In this document: positions 1 through 12,695 of the stretch, in pieces
How the letters are laid out: the number at the start of each line of letters is the position of its first letter
Numbering within the stretch: position 1 is the stretch's first letter
Assembly (NCBI GenBank): GCA_963726195.1
Contig: CAVSBO010000019.1
Coordinates: 1 to 12,695, forward strand
Length of the DNA: 12,695 bases
Reading direction: 5' to 3'
From: Candidatus Thorarchaeota archaeon
GTDB lineage: Archaea > Asgardarchaeota > Thorarchaeia > Thorarchaeales > Thorarchaeaceae
Notes under the pieces: model-generated
What the model was told of the DNA's origin: nothing
The model's input: the letters and a program-made list of their open reading frames with translations, nothing else
The model's database searches: none
Translations under genes and position numbers: made by a program

Positions 1-85
1 CTTGGTGCCGTACGGCGGTGACCGCCTTTGGAATCGGTCCGTCCTGCAGGTCTGAAAAACCAAGTTCTCCGTAATCGTCGACCAT
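1..85. repeat. Imperfect direct repeat, copy 1 (may extend left of the window)
   Basis: Ungapped alignment to 9970-10054 gives 76/85 identity (mismatches at 5, 6, 14, 19, 34, 43, 49, 77, 82). Confidence 0.95.
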
Positions 86-103
86 CACAAGGGCTGTTTT
101 CAT
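1..103 (-). CDS. 5' part of a hypothetical protein running off the left window edge (MKTALVMVDDYGELGFSDLQDGPIPKAVTAVRHQ...), paralog of 9746..10066
   Basis: Manual translation of the - strand from ATG at 103 (or ATG at 85) stays open to position 1. The same frame is conserved in the repeat copy at 9970-10054 (MLDDYGELGFSDLQHGPVPKAVAAVRRQ). It is divergent from the ATPase gene. Confidence 0.4.
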   Translation of the reverse strand, partial: MKTALVMVDDYGELGFSDLQDGPIPKAVTAVRHQ

Positions 104-313
104 CCAGAATCGGTGAAGTGGAGTCAAGAACTGCTTTTTGCGTATTCAGAATGCGTTCAGTCGCCAAGTTCTTGAATTCAGGATTAACGATGCTCATCGG
201 TGTTTTTCGATAGGCGTTTGTCAGTCCTTGTACCCATTCACTCTCACCATTCGATGTCGGTGAGAATGTGACCGCGTCAGCTCAGCCCGAATCCAAGTCC
301 AGCTTGGTTCAAG

Positions 314-3300
314 ATGCTCTGTGTCTTCGTTCTGGCACTTGCCCCGCTTATGGTGAGCGGAGCGGCGCTGAACTCTCTCAATCTTATCTCGCCCATAGTG
401 AATACGATAGCCTTCTTACTGGCTGCTCTCTGCTTTCTTGTTGGCGCGTCGGCACTGGTCTTCACAGGCGTTTCCAAGAAGAATCTACTTCTCTGGTTGA
501 GCGGAGTAGCAGTTGTCCTTATTGTTGCGGCTCTTGACGGCGCTGTCTTCCTTTTGCTAATGGCTCCACAATACCCTATTGAGGCAGCATCTGTCCTTGT
601 CGGTATTGTTGTCTTCTATATTGTGATAAGCCGTTCAAGAAGTGAGGCTAGGCCGAGTTTCTTCAAGCAACAACCCAACGCTTCACCCAGCAAAGCGATT
701 ACTACAGCATTCAAAGCTGTCTCGTTGGATTTGGTTCAGGGAGCAGAAATCGTAGGCGTCCCAGATGATTATCTGAGAGTAACAGACGACAAGGCGTCGT
801 TCAGGACGAAGTGTCAACCCTTCTACGACATTCTGCGCGTTCTCATCATCGCCGGGGTCCCCCTAGCGTTGCGGCTTGAGACTCGCCTAGGCAAAACAAC
901 AGTGTTCTACCTCACTTGGTCTAGTGACACAAACAAGCTGGCTCAGTACCTCCAATCACTGACCGATACGATTAGAGTCAACCTCCCTATGTTCGTGACA
1001 AGACTGGTGAAGAGGTTCGAATCAGAAGTCGACACAGGTCATGGAGTTGGAACAGCCGTATACCTGATTGGCGAGCCCCTCTCGTTCGATGATGACAGGC
1101 AACGACTCGACCCGCTGACAGGCGTGACAGACATAATGCAACATCTTGACAACTGCATCATTCATGTCTCTGCAGTTCCCTATCAAGTTTCTAAGTCCAA
1201 GCTCAAGGAGGCAGAATCTGATTATCAGCGGCTGACGGAGCAGTCTCAAAAGACAATCTCGGAACCGGGCCACAGATTGCTCTCGCCGGATACCCAGCTC
1301 TCTAGAACGCAGGTGGACGCGCGAGCGTCGCGCCTTGCAACACAGGCGCTTCAGGACCTCAAGAGGCTGAGCAACCAATACCTCTGCAAGACGGAAGTGG
1401 CTTGTGCATGTTTGGGAACGGATCGAAACCAGACAGACGCCAGCGTTCACAGACTAATGGACGTGTTGGTAGGTATGTTGGCTCCTGCCACAAAAGAGAG
1501 AGATTTCCGCGTCGTCACCAAGAAGGGCAGGTCAGAGCTTGATAGAATCGCCCGCGGACTGCCCTCGTCGGAAGCAACAGTGTTGGCACTCGATGAGGCG
1601 GCAGTCTACTTCACTTTCCCGCGGTCCGATTTCGGCTTGAGGGTGAGCAAGAGAAGTTCATTCTCGTCAGGTTCCGCATTGGTTGCTCCGATTGCATATC
1701 ATGCAGAGTCGAAAAGGGAACAGCCCATTCTTGTCAATCAGGTTCCCACTTCGACCTTGGCTCGACAGACTGCGATTTGGAAGTATCCAGCAGACGGTAA
1801 CATCCTGCTCGGCTATCCCTTGATGGCAAGCGGAGAGAAGATACTCGATCGCCCCAAGGTGATGCTCGCGAAGTTTCTTGAGTCTCATTTGTTGATGGTC
1901 GGCAACACGCGCTCGGGCAAAACAACTACCGGGCTCTCGATTGCCGCACAAGCCATGAGGAACGGCGTGCATTCGATTGTGCTCGCCGGGCACAAAGGCT
2001 ACGAGTGGGCGAGTCTCTTGGACTTGGACCCTAATGTCTGGGTCTTCACTCCCGATGACCCCGACACAGCGCCTGTTTGTATTCCATCATTTCAGCCACC
2101 TCCGAAGGTGAAGCTCTACAGATGGTTCGATAGAATCGTGAATGTGTTTCTTGCTTCGATGCCTATCGATGGTGTGCTGAAGATGCATTTTAACGATGTG
2201 TTCCACACGATGTATCGCCGCTGCGGCTGGAGTATCAGCACCAACAAGCAGGGGAGATCAATCACACTGGCTGACCTGTATGAAGCTGTTCTGGAAGTGT
2301 CCACAGCCAAGAACCTGCAATATGACGATGAAGTCCGAAAGAACATCTTTGGTGCGATGCTTGCCCGCGTGAAGATGATGATGAGGAATCCTGCGCTGGT
2401 GAGGATGCTCAACACGACCCAAGGCATCTCGATTCCTGAATTGCTCAATCACACTGCAGTGTTCATCTTGGACAATCTCAGCGAATCTGACAAGATACTT
2501 GTCACTGGGCTGCTGACGGCGGCGATAAGTGAATACAGGATGGCGAGTCCACTTTCTGAACTTCGCAATCTTCTGATTATCGAAGAGGCACAGTACCTCC
2601 TTGGCCACTCTCTGGAGACCGGACAGATGAGCCCGACCATTCAACAAGAAGTTACGGCGGCTGTGATTGAGATGCTGAGGACAATGGGTGGTGCAGGACT
2701 GGGAATTGTGTTGATGACACAGCTTGCCTCGTCTCTCGCCAGCGAAGCGAGGCTTATCCCAGTGAATCTGATAATCCACGGAACGAGCGAAGAGAAAGGC
2801 CTGCAACTCGCCAAGGAACACGCCCGCTGTAACAGTGACCAGATTGAGCATATCAGCGGGATGACACGGGGAGAAACCATAGTCTTTCTTGAGAATGACC
2901 ATTTCCCGGCTAACGTGCAGATAGTTCCCCTTAGTGAACTCGTAGACACGCCTATTCGAACGGGGTTCTGGACTGCCGAGCAGGTTCGGGAGGCGATGCA
3001 GCCGGTCTGCGAGAAACATCCCGAGTTCAAAGCATCGCTTCCGCTCCCTGACAGGCTGATAGAGGTAATCGAAGGTGCTGCTCCTCAACCCGATTTATCG
3101 CGGAAAGGAGTACAAGAACAAGCAGGCGTCACGATGGGCAATGGCTCTTCCCATGATTCCGAGACCGAATCGCAACTCAACGCTCTGGTTCGAAGAGCCT
3201 TGAGTACGGGAACATTCGGGCAGTTCTATCAGCTGCGGCTAGAACAGGCCGAGAGAGGCGACACATATCCCTACGTTCAGTTGGTGTCTGAGTTCTGCCG

Positions 3301-3442
3301 CAAGTTTTGTCCCAAGGGTGTCAGCCCGGCATTGTTTGCCAAGAGGTTCATCGCCATATCAAAGGAGATCTCCCAAGGCCCAACAGATGGACACGTGATT
3401 GCTGGCATTGAACAAGCTCTCGAACAGGATTCAGCCGCTTGA
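314..3442 (+). CDS. Membrane-anchored HerA/FtsK-superfamily (VirD4/VirB4-like) P-loop ATPase
   Basis: 3-4 hydrophobic segments in the first ~105 aa. Walker A HLLMVGNTRSGKTT (G530, nt 1901-1924), Walker B LLIIEEAQ (E757), and the HerA/VirD4-type R..G.G.hhhhTQ motif (EMLRTMGGAGLGIVLMTQ). The pre-ATPase domain has DPL and VLALDEAAVYFTFP motifs reminiscent of coupling-protein N-terminal domains. Confidence 0.9.
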   Translation: MLCVFVLALAPLMVSGAALNSLNLISPIVNTIAFLLAALCFLVGASALVFTGVSKKNLLLWLSGVAVVLIVAALDGAVFLLLMAPQYPIEAASVLVGIVVFYIVISRSRSEARPSFFKQQPNASPSKAITTAFKAVSLDLVQGAEIVGVPDDYLRVTDDKASFRTKCQPFYDILRVLIIAGVPLALRLETRLGKTTVFYLTWSSDTNKLAQYLQSLTDTIRVNLPMFVTRLVKRFESEVDTGHGVGTAVYLIGEPLSFDDDRQRLDPLTGVTDIMQHLDNCIIHVSAVPYQVSKSKLKEAESDYQRLTEQSQKTISEPGHRLLSPDTQLSRTQVDARASRLATQALQDLKRLSNQYLCKTEVACACLGTDRNQTDASVHRLMDVLVGMLAPATKERDFRVVTKKGRSELDRIARGLPSSEATVLALDEAAVYFTFPRSDFGLRVSKRSSFSSGSALVAPIAYHAESKREQPILVNQVPTSTLARQTAIWKYPADGNILLGYPLMASGEKILDRPKVMLAKFLESHLLMVGNTRSGKTTTGLSIAAQAMRNGVHSIVLAGHKGYEWASLLDLDPNVWVFTPDDPDTAPVCIPSFQPPPKVKLYRWFDRIVNVFLASMPIDGVLKMHFNDVFHTMYRRCGWSISTNKQGRSITLADLYEAVLEVSTAKNLQYDDEVRKNIFGAMLARVKMMMRNPALVRMLNTTQGISIPELLNHTAVFILDNLSESDKILVTGLLTAAISEYRMASPLSELRNLLIIEEAQYLLGHSLETGQMSPTIQQEVTAAVIEMLRTMGGAGLGIVLMTQLASSLASEARLIPVNLIIHGTSEEKGLQLAKEHARCNSDQIEHISGMTRGETIVFLENDHFPANVQIVPLSELVDTPIRTGFWTAEQVREAMQPVCEKHPEFKASLPLPDRLIEVIEGAAPQPDLSRKGVQEQAGVTMGNGSSHDSETESQLNALVRRALSTGTFGQFYQLRLEQAERGDTYPYVQLVSEFCRKFCPKGVSPALFAKRFIAISKEISQGPTDGHVIAGIEQALEQDSAA

Positions 3443-6400
3443 GGATGGTCATCTTGCCATTCAAAATCCGCGAAACCGGGGAGGGGTTAGACAGAGAAAG
3501 TGAGTCTGAGAAGACACTCGAAAGGGAGCGGAATCGCGAAGGAACTGACCTTGGCACCGAGGACGATCTCGAGAGGCGAATCAAGGAGTTCCAGGAAGAG
3601 TTCGTGGCAGAGCAAGAAGAATCACATAACAGGGAGAACAGCGATATTCTCAAGGAACAAGAGGAGAGTGTCGAGCCACATGAGCGGATCCTGTCAGACT
3701 TTGAAGAGAAAGTGATCGATGCCTTCGAGGAATTTGGCATTGACCGGGAGAAGGTCAAGGCGCATTGGACTGAGCGTGAGATTGAGAATATCGAAGACGC
3801 GCTCGGCGTCTCAGGCAAGGAACATGCAGAGAGCGATAAGGAGACCCATGAATTCGAGGAGAAAGGCCCCGAGAAGACCGAACCCCTGTCCGAATACGTG
3901 GTGACTGAAGCGGGCGGCGGCCTGGTTTGTGCGCTCGAACTTGGTAAAGGAGAGGAGTCATCTCTTGTTGAGGTGGAGGGCTTTGAGCACGAGGACCCAA
4001 GACCTGACGAGACGAATGAGACCAACGAATCCTCCGCAGTTACAGAAGAACAGGGGCCTGAGACCGAGCAGGAAGTGGTCGAGACTGCCGCCGAGAACCA
4101 AGACACGACCTCCGATTCTATGAGGGTCCTCGAATCAACACGTAGCACGGAGGAGGGGGAGGGAAACGGTCAACCCGTGTTTGCTGACAATGAAGAGGTG
4201 TCTGATGGTCGCAGGATTTCAACCACTTCAGGAGCTACCAACGAACTGCCTACCGAATCCACGGAAAGAGCATTTGCGAAATCGAACCCTGAAGGCGTGG
4301 AAGAATCAACGCACGGTGAGTCGATTGAGTTTGACTCCGAATGCTCCGGGGAGCTGGAAGAACGTCAGGAAGACGAGACCGAACTCCTTGAAGACCGAAT
4401 GTATGGGCACTTGGTCAATGGCGAACGAATCCGGTCTGGGTCTGAGCACTCCGCAGTTGACCCTTCTCAGACAGAAGCGTACACCGAGGCTGACACACGC
4501 AGTCAAGAACTCATTGAGGCCGGAACAGAATCCCAAGATCAAGAGTCAGATGAGGAAGAACATGAGGTTGAGGAAGGAGCTGAGGAATGCTCTTCGCAGT
4601 CCGAGAATATCATGGCGGGTTTCTTTCCCGAGGGTGACCCTGTCATCAAGCCCATGCTTCCTGAAGGAAGCCACTTTGGGTTATTCCCGGAAACGGAAGA
4701 AGACCGGGTCAGAGAAAAGCTGAAGGATCTCTTCGATTCGCTGAGCGAGGAACAGAAGGAAGAAATCAAGGAACTCATTCGCCCTGACGTCGAGTCGGTT
4801 GAAGAGCTGGACGAACTCATTGCTCTGTTCCCCGATAGCCAATGCCATCCGGACTTCAAGACGATGTATGAGAAGGCGGTCGAATATGTTCAGACCGAGA
4901 AAGCGAGACATGGAAAAAGCGACCATGAAAAGCCAAGGCTGATTCAGTACATAATGAATCGCGAAGCGGAACGACGCTGGGCCGATCTGGTGTTCTGGGG
5001 AATCTCAGAATCGCACGACTATGAGTCTGTATCCAAGCAAGACACCGCCACGGATGTGTCAGCTCGCGCGGAAGCGATAGAGGAAACCGAGGCTCGTCGG
5101 TTCAAGAGAGCGATGTCCCCGGACGCATTACTACGCATCTATGAAGTTGCGCACGGATTCAGACCTAAGGTTTCTATCGAGACGATGAATGATGTGGACA
5201 GGCTTCTTGAAACGCATGAATCCCTCCGTAACAAGCCTCGATTCAAATCAAACTACGAAAAATGCCGCGTATATGTGGCTGTGAAGAAGGACCGGTCCAA
5301 GACACAGTTGGAGTTGTCGAGGATTTACCATATTCCGCAAAGCACAATCGGAACTTGGCGAAAAGGTGTCATGGAAGAATCACTAGTTCGTGCTTTGCGC
5401 GAGCGTGAAGAAATGCGAATAGCAGAACAGTGGGCTGTTCACCAGCCCCTGACAGAACTGAAGAGACTGTATCATCTAGTCTCCGAGTCCGACAATGAAG
5501 CACGAGAAGACAAGTCTCTTGGTTCATTCTCATTGCAGCCGCGGCGTGCGAAGTGTATTGATCTTCGGCATATCGGTCAAGTGTTTTCAGATACCAAGAC
5601 TGGTGAAATTGATACAGAACGAGTTGTTTCCTTGATTGAAAGCATCTGTCGACTCTCAGGAAATGAATCTAGGGTTCTCTTTTGTTCACTCAATGATGGG
5701 ACAATGGAACCCGAAGCATTGACTGAATTGCAGGAGTTCCTGCGGGATCACAGGAACGCAATCAAAAATGAAGTCGCTTGGCGCCTTGGCATGAACAACA
5801 ACAGCAACGATGTTCGACTAGGCATCGTAGAGGGCCGCTTGTACATTTGGATGCCGAACAACGACGCCAATGACTTGCTCAATGCTTGGTCCAGTCTATT
5901 CTTTTACTTTCGTAGCCAGAAAGAGTACTACAGGCTGTTCGGATACGTCTTTGAGTCTCTCGAACTGCATGACTATGGTGAGGGGCTCAAGCATTTTGAC
6001 AAGTTGATAGACGAGCTTATGCTCGAAGGAACCCGCAATGTAACTTCGAAATCCATGTCTGCGAAGAGTGTTCGAGTACTGGGAGAGGTCCTACGATTCC
6101 AGATGGATGCGACTGGCCTTCCCACTAGTTTTCTTGAAGGCCGTATCGGTAAGATTGCCGGGGCCAATGGACAGGGTGGAATCTGCAATCCTCACTTCTT
6201 GTCGGGGCGTCAGCTAGGTATGTTGCGGGCTAGATTGATGGCAACTGCAAACAGCGACTTCCATCTTCGGACGGACGGCAGAGTCGAGTACTACGAGGAA
6301 CACATGGATAGAATCGACATTTTCAAGAAGTCACTTCTCTTGCTTGGTGAAATGCGTCTGCCAATCACGAGAAGGAAAGGCAGTTACAGAGTCAATATCC

Positions 6401-7098
6401 CTCTTCCTGTTGGCAGATGCCTGCGCTTCTGGGGAATTCCTGGCGGGAACAAGACCCTCCTCAATTATGGGCTTCCAAGTCTTGTGATTAATGCCGATTT
6501 AGAGGAAGTGCGAGCATATGCTGAGGACTTGATACCACAAGATGGCTACTTTGGCCCGGGCGACGGTTTCATTTGGACGCGGTACGTCGGACTTGAGCCG
6601 GGTACAAAGGGGACAGGTTACGGACTTCATGAAATACTTACTCGCGACGAGGTGAACCTGATTGCTGCTTATGGAACGGATGATCAGCTTGACAGGAAGG
6701 TAGTAAGTTGGGGTAAGCTCGATGGGCTTCGGCTATCGAATGATAATGAAGTTGCAGACTCTGCTCGAAGCCTCATGAAGAAGATACTCGATACTCCTAG
6801 CAATCTTTTGGAGGATGAGGCTAGAATGATTGGTAGACTAGGAATCGGCATCGAGACTGCACCACGGACGATTAGATATCATAGGAAGACGGGAAAGGTT
6901 AGCGTAGGTTGGATTGGCAGAACAGTAGATTCCGAAGATGTACTCAGATGGGCGTCGCTCTGCCCGCCGAACGACGTTCGTAAGAGAGAGAAGGTCCTGT
7001 GCTTCCTCAAGTCTCATCTAGAAACTTGGACGAAGACCGGAAACGAGTTAATTAGGTCACGCGCAAAGCGTAGGTTTGGTGGGGATTCAAATGACTGA
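3439..7098 (+). CDS. Large multidomain protein: acidic disordered N-terminus, duplicated helical module with HTH, C-terminal LAGLIDADG-like (DOD) domain
   Basis: 1219-aa ORF whose TTG overlaps the ATPase TGA (TTGA; ATG at 3445 is an alternative start). The first ~400 aa are E/D/S/T-rich. HTH-like KTQLELSRIYHIPQSTIGTWRKG (nt 5299-5367). LAGLIDADG-like helices ARLMATANSDFH (D940) and RAYAEDLIPQDG (D1035), the linker WGIPGGNKT...LPSLV and LLEDEARMIGRLGI are typical of intein-type endonucleases. Confidence 0.8.
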   Translation: MRMVILPFKIRETGEGLDRESESEKTLERERNREGTDLGTEDDLERRIKEFQEEFVAEQEESHNRENSDILKEQEESVEPHERILSDFEEKVIDAFEEFGIDREKVKAHWTEREIENIEDALGVSGKEHAESDKETHEFEEKGPEKTEPLSEYVVTEAGGGLVCALELGKGEESSLVEVEGFEHEDPRPDETNETNESSAVTEEQGPETEQEVVETAAENQDTTSDSMRVLESTRSTEEGEGNGQPVFADNEEVSDGRRISTTSGATNELPTESTERAFAKSNPEGVEESTHGESIEFDSECSGELEERQEDETELLEDRMYGHLVNGERIRSGSEHSAVDPSQTEAYTEADTRSQELIEAGTESQDQESDEEEHEVEEGAEECSSQSENIMAGFFPEGDPVIKPMLPEGSHFGLFPETEEDRVREKLKDLFDSLSEEQKEEIKELIRPDVESVEELDELIALFPDSQCHPDFKTMYEKAVEYVQTEKARHGKSDHEKPRLIQYIMNREAERRWADLVFWGISESHDYESVSKQDTATDVSARAEAIEETEARRFKRAMSPDALLRIYEVAHGFRPKVSIETMNDVDRLLETHESLRNKPRFKSNYEKCRVYVAVKKDRSKTQLELSRIYHIPQSTIGTWRKGVMEESLVRALREREEMRIAEQWAVHQPLTELKRLYHLVSESDNEAREDKSLGSFSLQPRRAKCIDLRHIGQVFSDTKTGEIDTERVVSLIESICRLSGNESRVLFCSLNDGTMEPEALTELQEFLRDHRNAIKNEVAWRLGMNNNSNDVRLGIVEGRLYIWMPNNDANDLLNAWSSLFFYFRSQKEYYRLFGYVFESLELHDYGEGLKHFDKLIDELMLEGTRNVTSKSMSAKSVRVLGEVLRFQMDATGLPTSFLEGRIGKIAGANGQGGICNPHFLSGRQLGMLRARLMATANSDFHLRTDGRVEYYEEHMDRIDIFKKSLLLLGEMRLPITRRKGSYRVNIPLPVGRCLRFWGIPGGNKTLLNYGLPSLVINADLEEVRAYAEDLIPQDGYFGPGDGFIWTRYVGLEPGTKGTGYGLHEILTRDEVNLIAAYGTDDQLDRKVVSWGKLDGLRLSNDNEVADSARSLMKKILDTPSNLLEDEARMIGRLGIGIETAPRTIRYHRKTGKVSVGWIGRTVDSEDVLRWASLCPPNDVRKREKVLCFLKSHLETWTKTGNELIRSRAKRRFGGDSND

Positions 7099-7696
7099 GA
7101 TGCCGCCCCAAGCACTGAAAGTACTTACGAAGATACTAAGAGATTCAAAGAGTCTTACGAGTGTTGCGGAGGTACATGAATCGATGCTCAAGTGGCTTGA
7201 TCCCTCAGGCTCTAGCCCCACCGGAGTGGAACTCGTGAACCGGATTATAGATGAAGCAGTCTCTGAGCTCGTTGCCGAGATGGTGATTGATTACCCATCG
7301 CATGACGAGCTGGGCAACCCACAAGGTAAGCCCGAGTGGCATCTGAAGCTTCTCGATGACAAGGCGAGACGCACGCTGGCTGGTTTTTCCCCAGAGCAAT
7401 CTGCTCTCTTGAGGATTCTCTACAAGAGCAACTCATCAAAACGAATCGGTGCCATACGAGAGGAGGACGCGCTCAAGGTGCTCCACCAACAGGGGTTTGA
7501 CGTTTCTGAGATTCCCAGCATCGAGGATAGAGTGTCTTACTACTTCAGTGCGGAAGGCGGCAAGCGTGAGTTGTGGATTTACCTCATTCCTGAACATGAG
7601 AAGTCTCCCGCTTACAAGAGAGAACTGGAACGTTTGATGAAGAAGCACGAAAGGCAAGAAGACCACGAGATCGCGACCAGCCGCCGTGTAAAGTGA
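7091..7696 (+). CDS. Hypothetical ~201-aa protein, probably winged-helix-like
   Basis: ATG at 7091 overlaps the upstream gene end by 8 nt and follows a GGTGGGGA RBS-like sequence (7078-7085), so it is preferred over TTG 7076. Two helix-rich segments begin PPQALKVLTKIL and SPEQSALLRILY and each ends in short beta strands. The fold call is inference. Confidence 0.7.
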   Translation: MTEMPPQALKVLTKILRDSKSLTSVAEVHESMLKWLDPSGSSPTGVELVNRIIDEAVSELVAEMVIDYPSHDELGNPQGKPEWHLKLLDDKARRTLAGFSPEQSALLRILYKSNSSKRIGAIREEDALKVLHQQGFDVSEIPSIEDRVSYYFSAEGGKRELWIYLIPEHEKSPAYKRELERLMKKHERQEDHEIATSRRVK

Positions 7697-8196: not shown

Positions 8197-9367
8197 ATGT
8201 CTAGGGGAAGACCAGCCATAATCAACCCTGACATGCTCGTCTGGGCAAGAGAAGAGAGAGGGCTTACTGTCGAACAGGCCGCCAAGAGCATTCATCTATC
8301 ACCCGAGAAGCTGAAGGATATTGAGCTTGGCATTCAGCGGATTACTGTCCCGAAGCTGAAGAAAGCCGCACAGGTCTATCGGCGACCGACGGCCGCCTTT
8401 TCCTCCTCAAGAGGCCCATGCCATTGGCTGTTCCAGAATTCAGACGGAGTGTGGAGCACACAAATGAACCGCTATCACCTGAGACTTCGCCTAGAGATAC
8501 GGAGAATTTACCAAAAGAGAGAAGCTGCAATTGAAATCGCTGACTTTGGACCCAGTTTCGATTGGCAACTAGTAGGGTCCGCCACATTAGATTCTGATCC
8601 TGAGAGATTGGGCCAACAGGTTCGAGATTTATTACATGTCTCTGATAGGTTTCCCATCGGGCTTAGTGCCCACAAAGCATTCGATTACTGGCGTCAATCG
8701 GTCGAGAATAACGGTGTGTTAGTCTTTCAGATTACCAAGGTGGGCCTAGAGGAAATGCGTGGATTCTCCATGGGCGCGAAGCTATTTCCCGTAATCGCCG
8801 TCAACCGGAAGGACGACCCCGGACCTAGGTCTTTCACTTTGCTCCATGAACTATGCCATGTTATGATTGCCGACTCGAGTGTGTGCGAGATTCGTGATGA
8901 AAAAACGATTGGAGAAGAAAAGGCTCGCTCCATTGAGGCGTTTTGCAATCATGTTGCAGGGGCTGCTCTGGTTCCTTCTCATCCTCTGCTAGCCACCGTC
9001 GAAGTGATGAGAACATGGACGCGAAGAGTCTTGGACTGAGACTGACCTCCTGCAACTTGCCTCTAGATTCAAGGTAAGCAGAGAAGTAGTCCTTCGGCGT
9101 CTCCTTTTCCTCGGGCGTACAACTGATGGTTTCTATCGTTCGAAACGCGAGGAGTGGCAGCAGCGAACGCGTATTCCTAGGCAGGAACCTTGGGGCGAAC
9201 CAGTACATGAGATGGTCTTGCGCACCGAGGGACGTACATTTACTTCCATGGTTCTGGAGGCTTTTCATGGAGGTGCCCTAGGCCCAACCGACGTTTCGGA
9301 ACTTCTGAGCATGGATTTAAAGCACCTGTCGTCTCTGGAGAGGGTGCTTGAAGAGAGGGTGTCGTAG
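8197..9367 (+). pseudogene. XRE-HTH + ImmA/IrrE (M78) Zn-metallopeptidase, ~389 aa after correcting three 1-nt indels (pseudogene or sequencing error)
   Basis: N-terminal XRE HTH (INPDMLVWAREERGLTVEQAA), HEXXH in FTLLHELCH, and EAFCNHVAGAALVP. The conserved C-terminus LASRFKVSREVVLRRL...EERVS* lies in the +1 frame after ~9012 and ends at TAG 9365-9367. The segment 8401-8484 reads FLLKRPMPLAVPEFRR...LSPE in a shifted frame. Confidence 0.9.
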
Positions 9368-9372
9368 AATCG

Positions 9373-9831
9373 ATGGGATATAGCTTCGATACATCAGCCA
9401 TGATTAATCCGTGGAAATTCATGTATCCCATTCGTCATTTTCCATCCTTCTGGCGGACACTAGATGATGTGATTCGAAGTGGAGAGCTGCTAGCTAGTGA
9501 AATGGTGCTTGAGGAACTCAAGCAGAAATCTGATGAGCTGCTTGAATACGTGAATGAACGCCGTGCACTATTTGTCCCTGTTGACGAACCGCAAATGCGA
9601 ATCGTGACAGAGATAGTGAACAGGTTTCCGAAGTTGGCTGACTACGACAATACAAAAGAGGTTGCCGATCCTTATGTTGTGGCGCTCGCCAAACAGCGTG
9701 AGTTGATGGTCGTGACCGATGAACAGAGGCCTCCTCGTGGAAAGGTCAAGATTCCAGAAGTCTGTCAATATATGAAAGTAAAATGCATTGGCATTCTCGA
9801 GTTTCTCGATGAGATTCAGCTTGTACTTTGA
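9373..9831 (+). CDS. PIN-domain protein, DUF4411-like (putative RNase toxin)
   Basis: YSFDTSA, YP...FPSFW, VLEEL, ADPYVVALA, VVTDE and KIPEVC motifs match the DUF4411 PIN pattern. It starts 5 nt after the XRE/ImmA stop, the usual pairing for this family. Confidence 0.9.
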   Translation: MGYSFDTSAMINPWKFMYPIRHFPSFWRTLDDVIRSGELLASEMVLEELKQKSDELLEYVNERRALFVPVDEPQMRIVTEIVNRFPKLADYDNTKEVADPYVVALAKQRELMVVTDEQRPPRGKVKIPEVCQYMKVKCIGILEFLDEIQLVL

Positions 9832-10066
9832 GGACGTTGGTTTGTTGACCGACAGTCCCATTAACATGTGCAAAAGCACAAGTGTGCGCGGGCCGGTCCA
9901 CCAAATACCATAACTCCTTCTTTGCCACACGGAGTTGTATGAATGCTTTTCGGTTCGTTTCAAGATGTACTTGACGCCGTACAGCGGCGACCGCCTTTGG
10001 AACCGGTCCGTGCTGCAAGTCTGAAAAACCAAGTTCTCCGTAATCATCGAGCATGAGATTGGCCAT
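9746..10066 (-). pseudogene. Hypothetical ORF or truncated remnant, paralog of the gene at the left edge
   Basis: The N-terminal 28 codons from ATG 10054 match the ORF at 1-85. The last 86 nt run antisense into the PIN gene, suggesting truncation near 9832. Confidence 0.4.
9970..10054. repeat. Imperfect direct repeat, copy 2
   Basis: 76/85 identical to positions 1-85, same orientation. Confidence 0.95.
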
Positions 10067-10385: not shown

Positions 10386-11060
10386 CTATTGACTCTCCAT
10401 CGCTATCTTGATAGACTTGTACACTTTTTCGTCAAACTTTGACTCCTTGGGGTCGGAAACCGTGACAATCACTCTCATTGAGTCGGCGATTAGGATGCCC
10501 ACATCTTTGTACGAGGGACCTCTTTTCTCGATTACTTCTGAGTACTTCAGGTAGACGTATGGGGAGAAGGCTATGTATGACTTATCAACACCCTTTGCAT
10601 TGTCCCTGGCCTGAGCAAAAGCCTTGTCAACGGCACTCCTGCTTGGATCACTCTTCAGCTCTACAGCAATTAGCGTGGTCGATAGGAGCCCACCCTTGAA
10701 GCCGCATACATCGACTGACCGGTCTCGCCCGCCCATGGGCAGGGCTATTTCATACTTGACAGATAGACCTTGGTCACGTAGCCAGTTGTAAACGGGTTGT
10801 CTAAGACCTGACTCGGCGGATGGCTCATTGAGTATCTTGAAGAGGATGTCGGGTTGCCTCTTATCCAACCAATTCACGATATCTGTAAGTGAGAAAAAGC
10901 GGTCATCAGTTATTAACGCGGTCAGAGCTTTCTTATCGAGATTCGAGACTAAAGCGCTGCATATTTCAACGAGCTTCTCTTTGGTTAAGTCTTGAAGACG
11001 CTTATCGAACTCAACGTCTAGAAGCTCAATCACATTAGTCACGTTGGGCAAAGTCCGCAC
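10386..11060 (-). CDS. PD-(D/E)XK (restriction endonuclease-fold) nuclease with a helical N-terminal extension
   Basis: Catalytic pattern E (AESGL) ... D (RSVDVCG) ... ELK (IAVELK, nt 10653-10661) ... Q (AFAQA), followed by DKSYIAF and VGIL strands. GTG start. Confidence 0.8.
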   Translation of the reverse strand: MRTLPNVTNVIELLDVEFDKRLQDLTKEKLVEICSALVSNLDKKALTALITDDRFFSLTDIVNWLDKRQPDILFKILNEPSAESGLRQPVYNWLRDQGLSVKYEIALPMGGRDRSVDVCGFKGGLLSTTLIAVELKSDPSRSAVDKAFAQARDNAKGVDKSYIAFSPYVYLKYSEVIEKRGPSYKDVGILIADSMRVIVTVSDPKESKFDEKVYKSIKIAMESQ

Positions 11061-11070
11061 TCCCGAAGAC

Positions 11071-11097
11071 GATTAGTTGGTGTTGTTCGCACTAATC
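11071..11097 (-). promoter_or_regulatory. Inverted repeat GATTAGT-N13-ACTAATC upstream of the nuclease gene
   Basis: GATTAGT 11071-11077 and ACTAATC 11091-11097 lie between a TTTAAG TATA-like box (- strand, 11107-11112) and the GTG at 11060. Confidence 0.35.
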
Positions 11098-11158
11098 TCT
11101 TTTGCTCTTAAACGCTGTTGGCATGATGATTTACAGTTGTGTCATTTGAGTAGGCCCG

Positions 11159-12298
11159 TTACTCAAGAATAATCATGGCTCGGCTCTCGAATCGGACCTT
11201 GAGCCTAAAGGTTGCTGGTGTCGTCAGCTGAAGACATGAGCAGCCAGAATCCAATAGGGTCTTCTTGAGTGCCGGCGAGACCGACGTTTTTGCGGCATAG
11301 AATTGCTCTACCCTCTTCTTGTCCAGCTTCTTGATTACGGAGTAACAAGTCAGAAAGAATGATTTGGCGATGTCGCGTGTCGGGTTGTTCGCAGAGGCAT
11401 GTGCGCATTCGTTCCTCTGCTTGCGCAGATTTGTCAAATCCGTTGGCAGGTTCTTATCCAAGAGCTTGTTGGTTTTCGCTTGATACGTTGTTTTGACAGC
11501 TTCGACGATTGCTTCGTCTGTATGTTTCTCAAGAAGGGCGGTTAGGTCGTTGACCCTAAATCTAACCTTCTTTCCTCGAGCCATGATAGGCAATTTGCAT
11601 TTCTTCAGCTGCTCGAAACCGTCCGTGAACAGGTAACATCCTAAATAATGGACTATGGCTGTCCAGCCTACGACGACGGCTGCTTTGTATGCCTCGATAC
11701 TGAAGCAGAATATGGACTGGCGCAGTTGATCTTCCTCCTGAGGCGATATTGAACGAGCAACACTTTCGAGACCCTCTTTGAGCGCCTTGGTGTCTGCATC
11801 ATCTCTTTCTTCGTGCTTACAAAATGTACACAGAGTAAAGAAGACGTCTGCCATATCATTGACCACTTCTGGCTTCAGAGAAGTTCTGGTCTTCGGAGAA
11901 TGTGCATTCGTAAATAGTCTCTTTAGCTGTGCCGGCTGCATTGTCCAAGCCATGTTGGTCTGCTTGAATATGTCGGGGTAGCATTTCTTCACGAGCACCT
12001 GTAGGAAGGCCTTTCGATTCTTTGGTTTAGTATAGGTCCGATAATCATGATAGGTCTTGGTGGTCTTGCATTCTTTGTCTATTAGGCCTAGGTTCTTCAG
12101 AAGGAAACTCATTTGGGAATACTCAGTCCAACCCGTGAATCCCTGCGCATCTAGGCTGTCATTCTCTATAATATCAAGGGGTGGCCCCCTGTGCAAATCG
12201 TTTAGGAATGCCATGAGCTTGTCTGTTTTCTTAAAGTGGGAATATTTGTAGTGACGAGGTCGTCCTCTATTCGACAATTCAACCCCTCTGCTTGACAA
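11159..12298 (-). CDS. DUF5343-like N-terminal domain fused to a HEPN (DUF4145-like) RNase domain
   Basis: The N-terminal half LKNLGLID...T..Y.DYR...L...VKKCY.DIF...F.TLC resembles DUF5343 (winged-helix-like). The C-terminal half has the HEPN helix QLRQSIFCFSIEAYKAAVVVGWTAI and an Rx4H motif, RNECAH (nt 11399-11416). The start codon is uncertain (TTG 12298 or later). Confidence 0.8.
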   Translation of the reverse strand: MSSRGVELSNRGRPRHYKYSHFKKTDKLMAFLNDLHRGPPLDIIENDSLDAQGFTGWTEYSQMSFLLKNLGLIDKECKTTKTYHDYRTYTKPKNRKAFLQVLVKKCYPDIFKQTNMAWTMQPAQLKRLFTNAHSPKTRTSLKPEVVNDMADVFFTLCTFCKHEERDDADTKALKEGLESVARSISPQEEDQLRQSIFCFSIEAYKAAVVVGWTAIVHYLGCYLFTDGFEQLKKCKLPIMARGKKVRFRVNDLTALLEKHTDEAIVEAVKTTYQAKTNKLLDKNLPTDLTNLRKQRNECAHASANNPTRDIAKSFFLTCYSVIKKLDKKRVEQFYAAKTSVSPALKKTLLDSGCSCLQLTTPATFRLKVRFESRAMIILE

Positions 12299-12534: not shown

Positions 12535-12695
12535 TTAGAATAGTCCATTCAGTCCTACTGGCAAGTGGACGTAGGCGCACTTCGTGCCCGGAGAGTCAAC
12601 GTCTACGACCAAGCCTGCCCCCGTGAAAATCGCGCCCTGAAGAGGGATGAATTGAAGAGTTCCAGTTGTGTCATGCTCGAAGCTCTGGCTATTGC
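12535..12695 (-). CDS. Possible 3' end of a gene entering from the right edge (...NSQSFEHDTTGTLQFIPLQGAIFTGAGLVVDVDSPGTKCAYVHLPVGLNGLF*)
   Basis: Open frame from the window end to TAA at 12535-12537, with a protein-like beta-rich sequence and the same strand as its neighbours. No motif recognised. Confidence 0.35.
   Translation of the reverse strand, partial: NSQSFEHDTTGTLQFIPLQGAIFTGAGLVVDVDSPGTKCAYVHLPVGLNGLF

Follow-up and report, generated by a model that had tools for sequence, protein, structure and literature searches.

What kind of system is encoded when an archaeal membrane ATPase, a large protein ending in a putative nuclease and a small winged-helix protein are read from one operon? 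The question is raised by a stretch of 12,695 nucleotides (nt) from Candidatus Thorarchaeota archaeon (assembly GCA_963726195.1, contig CAVSBO010000019.1), here called the window, which is the whole of contig C19 of a 2.9-Mb genome. A preliminary description of the three open reading frames (ORFs) had offered three models: a minimal DNA-transfer module, a polymorphic-toxin-like system with an immunity gene, and an ATPase-nuclease antiviral complex. The answer we favour, with a probability of roughly 0.6, is that the operon represents an integrase-free homing element like the mobile ORFs of fungal mitochondria, to which a motor and an inhibitor have been added. Our literature searches found no published description of this element family, in agreement with the earlier suggestion that the system is undescribed.

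A LAGLIDADG nuclease at the ends of conserved genes

The C-terminal domain of ORF2 is modelled by AlphaFold2 (per-residue confidence, pLDDT, 86) as a tandem alpha-beta-beta-alpha-beta-beta-alpha fold. Its top Foldseek matches are LAGLIDADG throughout, and the VIA comparison gives Z 17.8 (second match 17.6), with a root-mean-square deviation of 2.4 over 190 residues to an intein LAGLIDADG domain. The fold named in the preliminary description is thus present by both model and fold search. An acidic residue occupies both predicted catalytic positions in 100 of 100 homologues, D940 being aspartate in all 100 and D1035 aspartate in 75 and glutamate in 25. WhiA is also among the fold matches; unlike ORF2, it has not kept the LAGLIDADG catalytic acids. 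As for the other parts assigned to ORF2, the acidic N-terminus is borne out (26-33% aspartate plus glutamate over residues 1-500), while the helix-turn-helix (HTH; residues ~620-645) is weakly matched by the fold search (Z ~4); the middle of the protein is likely to bind DNA. Pfam, NCBIfam and PADLOC profiles gave nothing useful for ORF2 or ORF3.

The nuclease domain occurs in 67 of 400 Asgard genomes (51/85 and 13/19 in two families), often in multiple copies, and nearly every carrier belongs to the Thorarchaeota or Hermodarchaeota; at 50% identity, 242 clusters reach an E value of 1e-30 or better, and the viral contigs and plasmids searched contained no relative. The gene lies outside introns and inteins and next to a conserved target gene, as free-standing homing endonucleases do. 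An intact tRNA gene adjoins 46 of 105 loci, and 36 of about 99 loci end at most 135 nt from the 3' end of a tRNA gene facing them, against 17 of 719 other genes; at other loci the facing end belongs to a hydrogenase, SufS, ArgF, AhcY or Lsm gene. Both the target-gene labels and the tRNA finder are our own, ARAGORN having missed the tRNA-Pro on contig C18 and numerous tRNAs whose T-arm is interrupted by an intron. Introns in the T-arm, D-arm or variable region are frequent among Thorarchaeota tRNA genes, which ARAGORN then fails to detect (it found 20 tRNAs in the source genome). We considered T-loop introns, seen at three tRNA-Phe loci, as a form of self-protection, but they are also common in non-adjacent tRNAs and the idea was not used.

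Mapped onto the nuclease tree (all trees were built with FastTree only), target gene requires 26 changes for 24 states (58 when shuffled) and host genus 33 changes for 13 states (46 when shuffled). By this measure the nuclease tree follows target gene better than host genus. One Hermodarchaeota copy nests among Thorarchaeota tRNA-Ala copies, and some copies of the module keep a fixed position across species.

Replaced gene ends and displaced remnants

Behind many modules lies a diverged copy of the target end, 11-290 nt long, and such repeats can bound the module alone or with little cargo, as seen at tRNAs, SufS, ArgF, UvrB and two hydrogenase genes. In protein-gene remnants the third codon position bears most of the differences (524 vs 243/184), and the gene's most conserved motif marks the start of several of these remnants. 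The direction of replacement was established at one locus, the hydrogenase locus L110. There the head of the gene is 87-91% like its relatives, while the working tail is 63-71% and the displaced tail 76-87% like the four majority-type tails, a comparison indicating that a foreign gene end is in use and the native end has been displaced. In 11 arrays with at least two remnants, no cassette lies closer to the intact gene than that of the nuclease; two loci, L005 and L092, are exceptions with other layouts. On contig C10 of the source genome (locus L002, 4600-19600), a tRNA-Met follows a paralogous module; beyond it come three or more cassettes, all terminated by 25-40 nt copied from the tRNA 3' end, and in two of these remnants the end of the tRNA's intron is preserved.

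The window has a remnant of this kind too. The operon sits in a repeat-bounded insertion at a tRNA hot spot, since the flank of a tRNA-Pro gene opens the window, a displaced remnant of that gene lies further along (Table 1), the site is nearly empty in a genome of the same genus (~1 kb between this tRNA-Pro and the pyrB block), and another relative, L005, has the module and a Cas operon adjoining the pyrB block at the same chromosomal site. The preliminary description had overlooked both the tRNA-Pro just upstream and the remnant; ARAGORN reports no tRNA within the window. Past base 177 the window and C18 haplotypes diverge, and the junction of the flank into the start of the ATPase gene is spanned by a contig from a public sequencing run. 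This split at 177/178 lies 243 nt past the tRNA-Pro, whereas the remnant spans just 150 nt of flank, and so forms a second junction. A small ORF within the 166-nt repeat was rejected, its substitutions showing no consistent frame. Assembly of public reads yielded short contigs, none with an excision joint, a negative that carries no weight. The Cas operon of L005 (1-5962) is of CRISPR type I.

Integrases were sought by profile. No match to PF00589 (tyrosine recombinase) lies near any module, the sole match on a module contig being 600 kb away, though divergent integrases could escape; the window contains no integrase gene, and PF07508 recombinases were found in 0 of 5 genomes. Among 86 family genomes, with the limited sensitivity of this search, 29 have a PF00589 match and 57 have none, the XerA-type recombinase of the latter being either absent or too divergent.

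A common chassis with exchangeable nucleases

The three forward-strand ORFs and their overlaps, TTGA at 3439-3442 (ORF1/ORF2) and 8 nt at 7091-7098 (ORF2/ORF3), are as first described. The coupled operon stands, with tight coupling, and the start of ORF2 moves: it is probably not TTG 3439, a possible alternative start, but the in-frame ATG at 3445, because the closest full-length homologue (in L005, 55-61% identical) starts at the equivalent ATG, two bases past the ATPase stop. The protein would then have 1217 amino acids (aa). Because the order ATPase-nuclease(-ORF3) recurs in more than 30 loci, and two further copies are present in the same genome, both frameshifted (C10 with all three genes, C16 without ORF3), the association is not due to chance, and the co-occurrence on which the proposal of a system depended is found. 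The trio is not obligate, ORF3 being present in 14 of 27 ATPase-bearing and 3 of 42 ATPase-less loci.

An apparently invariant C-terminus proved to be an artefact of searching with the nuclease, and was overturned when the search was based on the ATPase. Genes that follow a family ATPase have a common acidic leader and different C-termini: LAGLIDADG of the window's type or of a second type, HTH repeats combined with two HNH-like motifs (identified by eye), NUMOD3 repeats combined with HNH, or an unassigned domain. Leaders 75-81% identical over 600-660 aa bear different tips, and nearly identical ATPases bear different nucleases. The two double-HNH copies also face a tRNA (tRNA-Val) and have a remnant behind them. 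For most of the variant tips, no dedicated gene follows in the same orientation. The acidic tract has a median length of 220 aa where the ATPase is present and 0 aa where it is not, an association that could reflect one deletion removing both neighbours.

Several loci add to this variety. A 1898-aa protein (L149:3676-9369) has the family leader and a C-terminus outside the assigned families, with an ESM Atlas lead only, and is followed by an apparent broken 5' remnant of a PorA-type gene. Judged by eye, modules with the second LAGLIDADG type end directly in front of the start of a probable urocanase gene at L154 and, at L155, in front of a stretch similar to the beginning of RNase P RNA. Free-standing second-type LAGLIDADG and double-HNH copies without an ATPase are found at L059:16283-17863, L098:18506-19738 and L086:14915-15745.

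ORF3 as a candidate inhibitor

The N-terminal half of ORF3 is a winged helix (Z 7-9), as the annotation of a small winged-helix partner had it; the second half is less well tested. Distances between ORF3 sequences correlate with those between nucleases (rho 0.70, p 0.0005), whereas distances between ATPases show no such correlation (rho 0.10, p 0.14), which suggests that ORF3 co-evolves with the nuclease and the ATPase does not. In complex prediction the ORF3-nuclease pair scores 0.75 against 0.00 for the best control. The mark for this score is attained by 58 of the 80 solved pairs and by 2 of the 110 mismatched ones. Separate runs have at least 88% of their contacts in common, and the partner has a pLDDT of at least 80. 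ORF3 is predicted to cover both catalytic aspartates, D940 and D1035, together with the DNA-binding sheet. The prediction supports binding, and on this model it is quite likely that ORF3 restrains the nuclease. To our knowledge no protein inhibitor of a LAGLIDADG enzyme has been described; one is predicted here.

The membrane ATPase

ORF1 matches DUF87/HerA above the Pfam cut-off and has the Walker A and B motifs and DUF87 core of the HerA/FtsK superfamily, preceded by four hydrophobic helices in a hydropathy scan. Scores against the NCBIfam HerA-type profiles (canonical HerA, antiphage HerA, CedD, TraD) are all far under cut-off, with weak matches to CedD and HerA; among solved structures ORF1 is closest to HerA proteins, for the most part antiphage ones (E 3e-14 to 1e-8). 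At residue 792, which we take to be the arginine-finger position, the window ATPase and 30 of 39 homologues with transmembrane (TM) helices have glycine, while 18 of 19 homologues with fewer than three predicted helices, largely one clade, have arginine. The ATPase family is restricted to the same two Asgard families as the nuclease. For the N-terminal domain, ESM Atlas offers leads only (unnamed clusters 0.92-0.93, DUF8128 0.89). Family ATPases without a nuclease gene after them occur at L146, L151 and L172, and membrane-protein genes lie immediately upstream of the ATPase at L170-L172.

Other features of the window

Table 1. Coordinates of features in the window
Feature	Position	Strand	Remarks
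Flank downstream of intron-containing tRNA-Pro(TGG)	1-177	+	Identical to C18:40919-41095; tRNA 3' end 66 nt before the window
ORF1, HerA/VirB4-superfamily ATPase	314-3442	+	1042 aa; 4 predicted TM helices, domain at aa 130-470, Walker A at aa 530, Walker B at aa 757-758 (E757/E758), Gly at aa 792
ORF2 as first called	3439-7098	+	1219 aa
ORF2, acidic low-complexity leader	3445-4700	+	In homologues common to different nuclease tips; mostly missing where the ATPase is missing
ORF2, middle	4701-6198	+	Two copies of a short helical repeat, probable HTH, alpha/beta domain
ORF2, C-terminal two-motif LAGLIDADG domain	6199-7098	+	Predicted catalytic D940 (nt 6256-6258) and D1035 (nt 6541-6543); no intein
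ORF3, winged-helix protein with long C-terminal helix	7091-7696	+	201 aa; predicted cognate inhibitor over nuclease active site and DNA-binding sheet
Cargo within the repeat-bounded unit	8197-9831	+	HTH + ImmA/IrrE metallopeptidase; DUF4411 PIN protein
Displaced remnant	9889-10054	+	Repeats the final 15 nt of tRNA-Pro and 150 nt of its flank, at 92% identity to the sequence at the intact tRNA; marks the far limit of the inserted unit

The break in the ImmA/IrrE peptidase gene near 9012 is probably an assembly error, because a public contig lacks one base there; an odd stretch near 8400 may also be frameshifted. Past the remnant, two defence-like genes occupy 10386-12298 on the reverse strand, the first encoding a 224-aa restriction-endonuclease-like protein (by eye, with a weak GajB profile match) and the second a DUF5343 + HEPN protein (PADLOC PDC-M34A). 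A 22-nt direct repeat (86%) at 11124-11145 and 12653-12674 flanks the DUF5343-HEPN gene.

Proposed mechanism and alternative explanations

From its fold, catalytic acids and position, the LAGLIDADG domain would cleave an extended site within or next to the end of a conserved host gene, in this case tRNA-Pro. Host homologous recombination with element-bearing DNA would then mend the break. The donor would provide a replacement gene end, with element and cargo entering alongside, and would displace the old end outward to become a diverged remnant; further rounds would yield the tandem cargo arrays that we see as end products. That the nuclease cuts the element-free allele and that host recombination then copies in the element with a new gene end seems to us a good deal more probable than otherwise. 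The ATPase and leader form, as the sequences show, a chassis that receives different homing-type nucleases by recombination, and their most likely role would be to bring the nuclease, its DNA or both into another cell or onto the target; if the element homes, the chance that they move either between cells is a little under even. ORF3 would be the nuclease's own inhibitor, limiting self-cutting, and copies that lose the ATPase may persist as plain free-standing homing endonuclease genes.

Some observations sit uneasily with this scheme. The element-free haplotype is matched exactly by the flank at the intact tRNA and not by the remnant, a pattern not expected from a simple one-step model. Many tRNA remnants are only 11-25 nt long and resemble integrase attachment (att) sites, and an integrase acting in trans may build the tRNA insertions. 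The scheme does not account for the sparing of the nuclease's own intact target, introns in the T-arm being common in the lineage anyway, and related loci are not independent, so that the counts of loci at gene ends overstate. As to the motor, 19 of 58 family ATPases have fewer than three predicted TM helices, the usual arginine finger is missing from the window's clade, and in the neighbourhoods of the loci only the nuclease and ORF3 are conserved beside the ATPase, with no conserved channel, pilin or relaxase gene; a channel may, however, be supplied in trans.

The three models of the preliminary description fare differently against these data. A mobile element, as in the DNA-transfer model, is retained, but the evidence favours cutting of a target gene over nicking of an origin of transfer (oriT), and the neighbourhood lacks conserved VirB, pilin or integrase genes. 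That tabulating the neighbourhoods of ATPase homologues would distinguish the models was foreseen, and they show a variable C-terminal domain on a common acidic leader, without conserved integrase or pilin genes. Such a leader with variable tips is what a polymorphic toxin would show, with the ATPase exporting ORF2 by its acidic leader into neighbours, the tip cutting an essential gene, ORF3 conferring immunity, and homing endonucleases having been captured as tips. Closely similar leaders and ATPases with different nucleases, a third gene whose product is predicted to block the tip with which it co-evolves, and the tendency of tract and ORF3 to accompany the ATPase all fit such a toxin. Yet every identified tip is of homing type (LAGLIDADG x2, NUMOD3-HNH, HTH-HNH), ORF3 is missing from 13 of 27 ATPase-bearing loci and from most copies overall, most tips stay intact without the ATPase, many of them beside the gene they would cut, and the Pfam search found no WXG/LXG or other export domain; nor is there any need for a toxin gene to lie at its own target beside a gene end that has been replaced. 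Homing accounts better for the kind of tip, the scarce partner gene and the location at the target, and we regard a toxin as unlikely, although the two ideas can be combined.

Weaker still is the case for passive cargo, in which a host or helper integrase builds the tRNA islands and the nuclease gene rides along, or is a domesticated WhiA-like DNA-binding regulator. The short att-like tRNA remnants, the one tyrosine recombinase elsewhere in the source genome, the copies at fixed positions and the match to WhiA would all suit it. It accounts poorly for a nuclease or module that lies nearly always beside the intact target, the 11 multi-remnant arrays included, for remnants of up to 290 nt that are codon-biased and occur at protein genes too, for invariant catalytic acids, and for module-rich genomes such as G362 (97% complete) without a PF00589 match; we give it little credence. 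An intracellular HerA-nuclease complex, whether antiviral as in the third model or an end-processing pair like that of NurA, finds little support and is improbable. It draws on the antiphage HerA relatives of the ATPase, the defence genes that are common cargo nearby and the arginine finger retained by the TM-less clade. Against these, the NCBIfam HerA scores fall far short, no PADLOC model fits ORF2 or ORF3, the ATPase and nuclease trees are incongruent, unlike those of a tight stoichiometric pair, and target tracking and replaced gene ends are left unaccounted for.

The homing reading can be taken further, to a self-transmissible gene drive: a homing endonuclease kept in check by the inhibitor would be passed by the element's membrane ATPase into neighbouring Asgard cells, either together with its DNA or before it. 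We hold this extension to be doubtful. If true, recipients would repair the cut from the donor copy or die, toxin delivery and homing would be joined in a new class of mobile element, and that element would be the builder of the defence-gene arrays at tRNA and housekeeping-gene ends in Asgard archaea. Homing in itself would offer these archaea, in whose family genomes a tyrosine recombinase is detected in only a third, a possible integrase-free route for foreign genes to be inserted and stacked where tRNA and core genes end, and would extend gene-end-replacement homing from fungal mitochondria to archaeal chromosomes. The family also supplies about 100 natural LAGLIDADG enzymes, some 75 of them with a candidate target readable from the neighbouring gene, and bears on how DNA moves in archaea without relaxases.

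Relation to known systems

Polymorphic toxins with an FtsK/HerA export ATPase (type VII secretion; PMC3482391) have in common with the Asgard element the ATPase, a conserved N-terminus, an exchangeable nuclease tip and a downstream partner co-evolving with it; the Asgard element differs in its single ATPase domain, its homing-type tips, the absence of detected WXG/LXG domains, a partner missing from most copies, and its place at the presumed target. A VirB4/HerA-like motor in an archaeon without relaxase recalls crenarchaeal Ced/Ted DNA transfer and HerA-NurA (PMC9905601). Unlike Ced/Ted, the Asgard element is mobile and multi-copy, has a partner of site-specific nuclease type, and has no CedA-like channel or pilin beside the ATPase; unlike integrative conjugative elements, it has no tyrosine or serine integrase of its own that we could find in the window or near modules. 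The nuclease itself shares its two-motif monomeric fold (Z 14-18) with the DOD-type LAGLIDADG enzymes of inteins and introns (TliVMA, PI-PfuI, I-Tsp061I, I-DmoI) and with WhiA, and differs from the DOD-type enzymes in its long leader, an 80-residue insert in the second motif, and the lack of a Hint domain or intron.

The nearest Asgard precedent, by description, is HeimM2 of Heimdallarchaeum, where a homing-endonuclease homologue beside a tRNA gene was suggested to aid site-specific integration (PMC8813620). It is a single 8-kb element with a leucine-rich-repeat gene, for which no ATPase, leader or inhibitor is described. Phage T4 SegB is likewise a free-standing homing endonuclease adjoining tRNA genes, which recognises a T-stem-loop motif and spreads itself with flanking DNA (PMC2330249); it differs in its GIY-YIG fold and in being a single gene that acts in phage co-infection without motor or inhibitor. 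Closest of all are the mobile ORFs (mORFs) of fungal mitochondria, free-standing LAGLIDADG or GIY-YIG genes known at atp6 in Allomyces and at atp6, atp9, cox2 and nad3 in Glomus (PMC3630166). Here too the endonuclease gene lies beside a conserved gene, a foreign end is in use and the native end is displaced behind the endonuclease, without intron, intein or integrase. The Asgard element departs from them in residing on archaeal chromosomes, in targeting mostly tRNA ends, in a gene that usually faces its target, in its tandem cargo arrays, and in being often coupled to an ATPase, acidic leader and inhibitor. The end products match those of the fungal mORFs, and the targeting matches that of T4 SegB.

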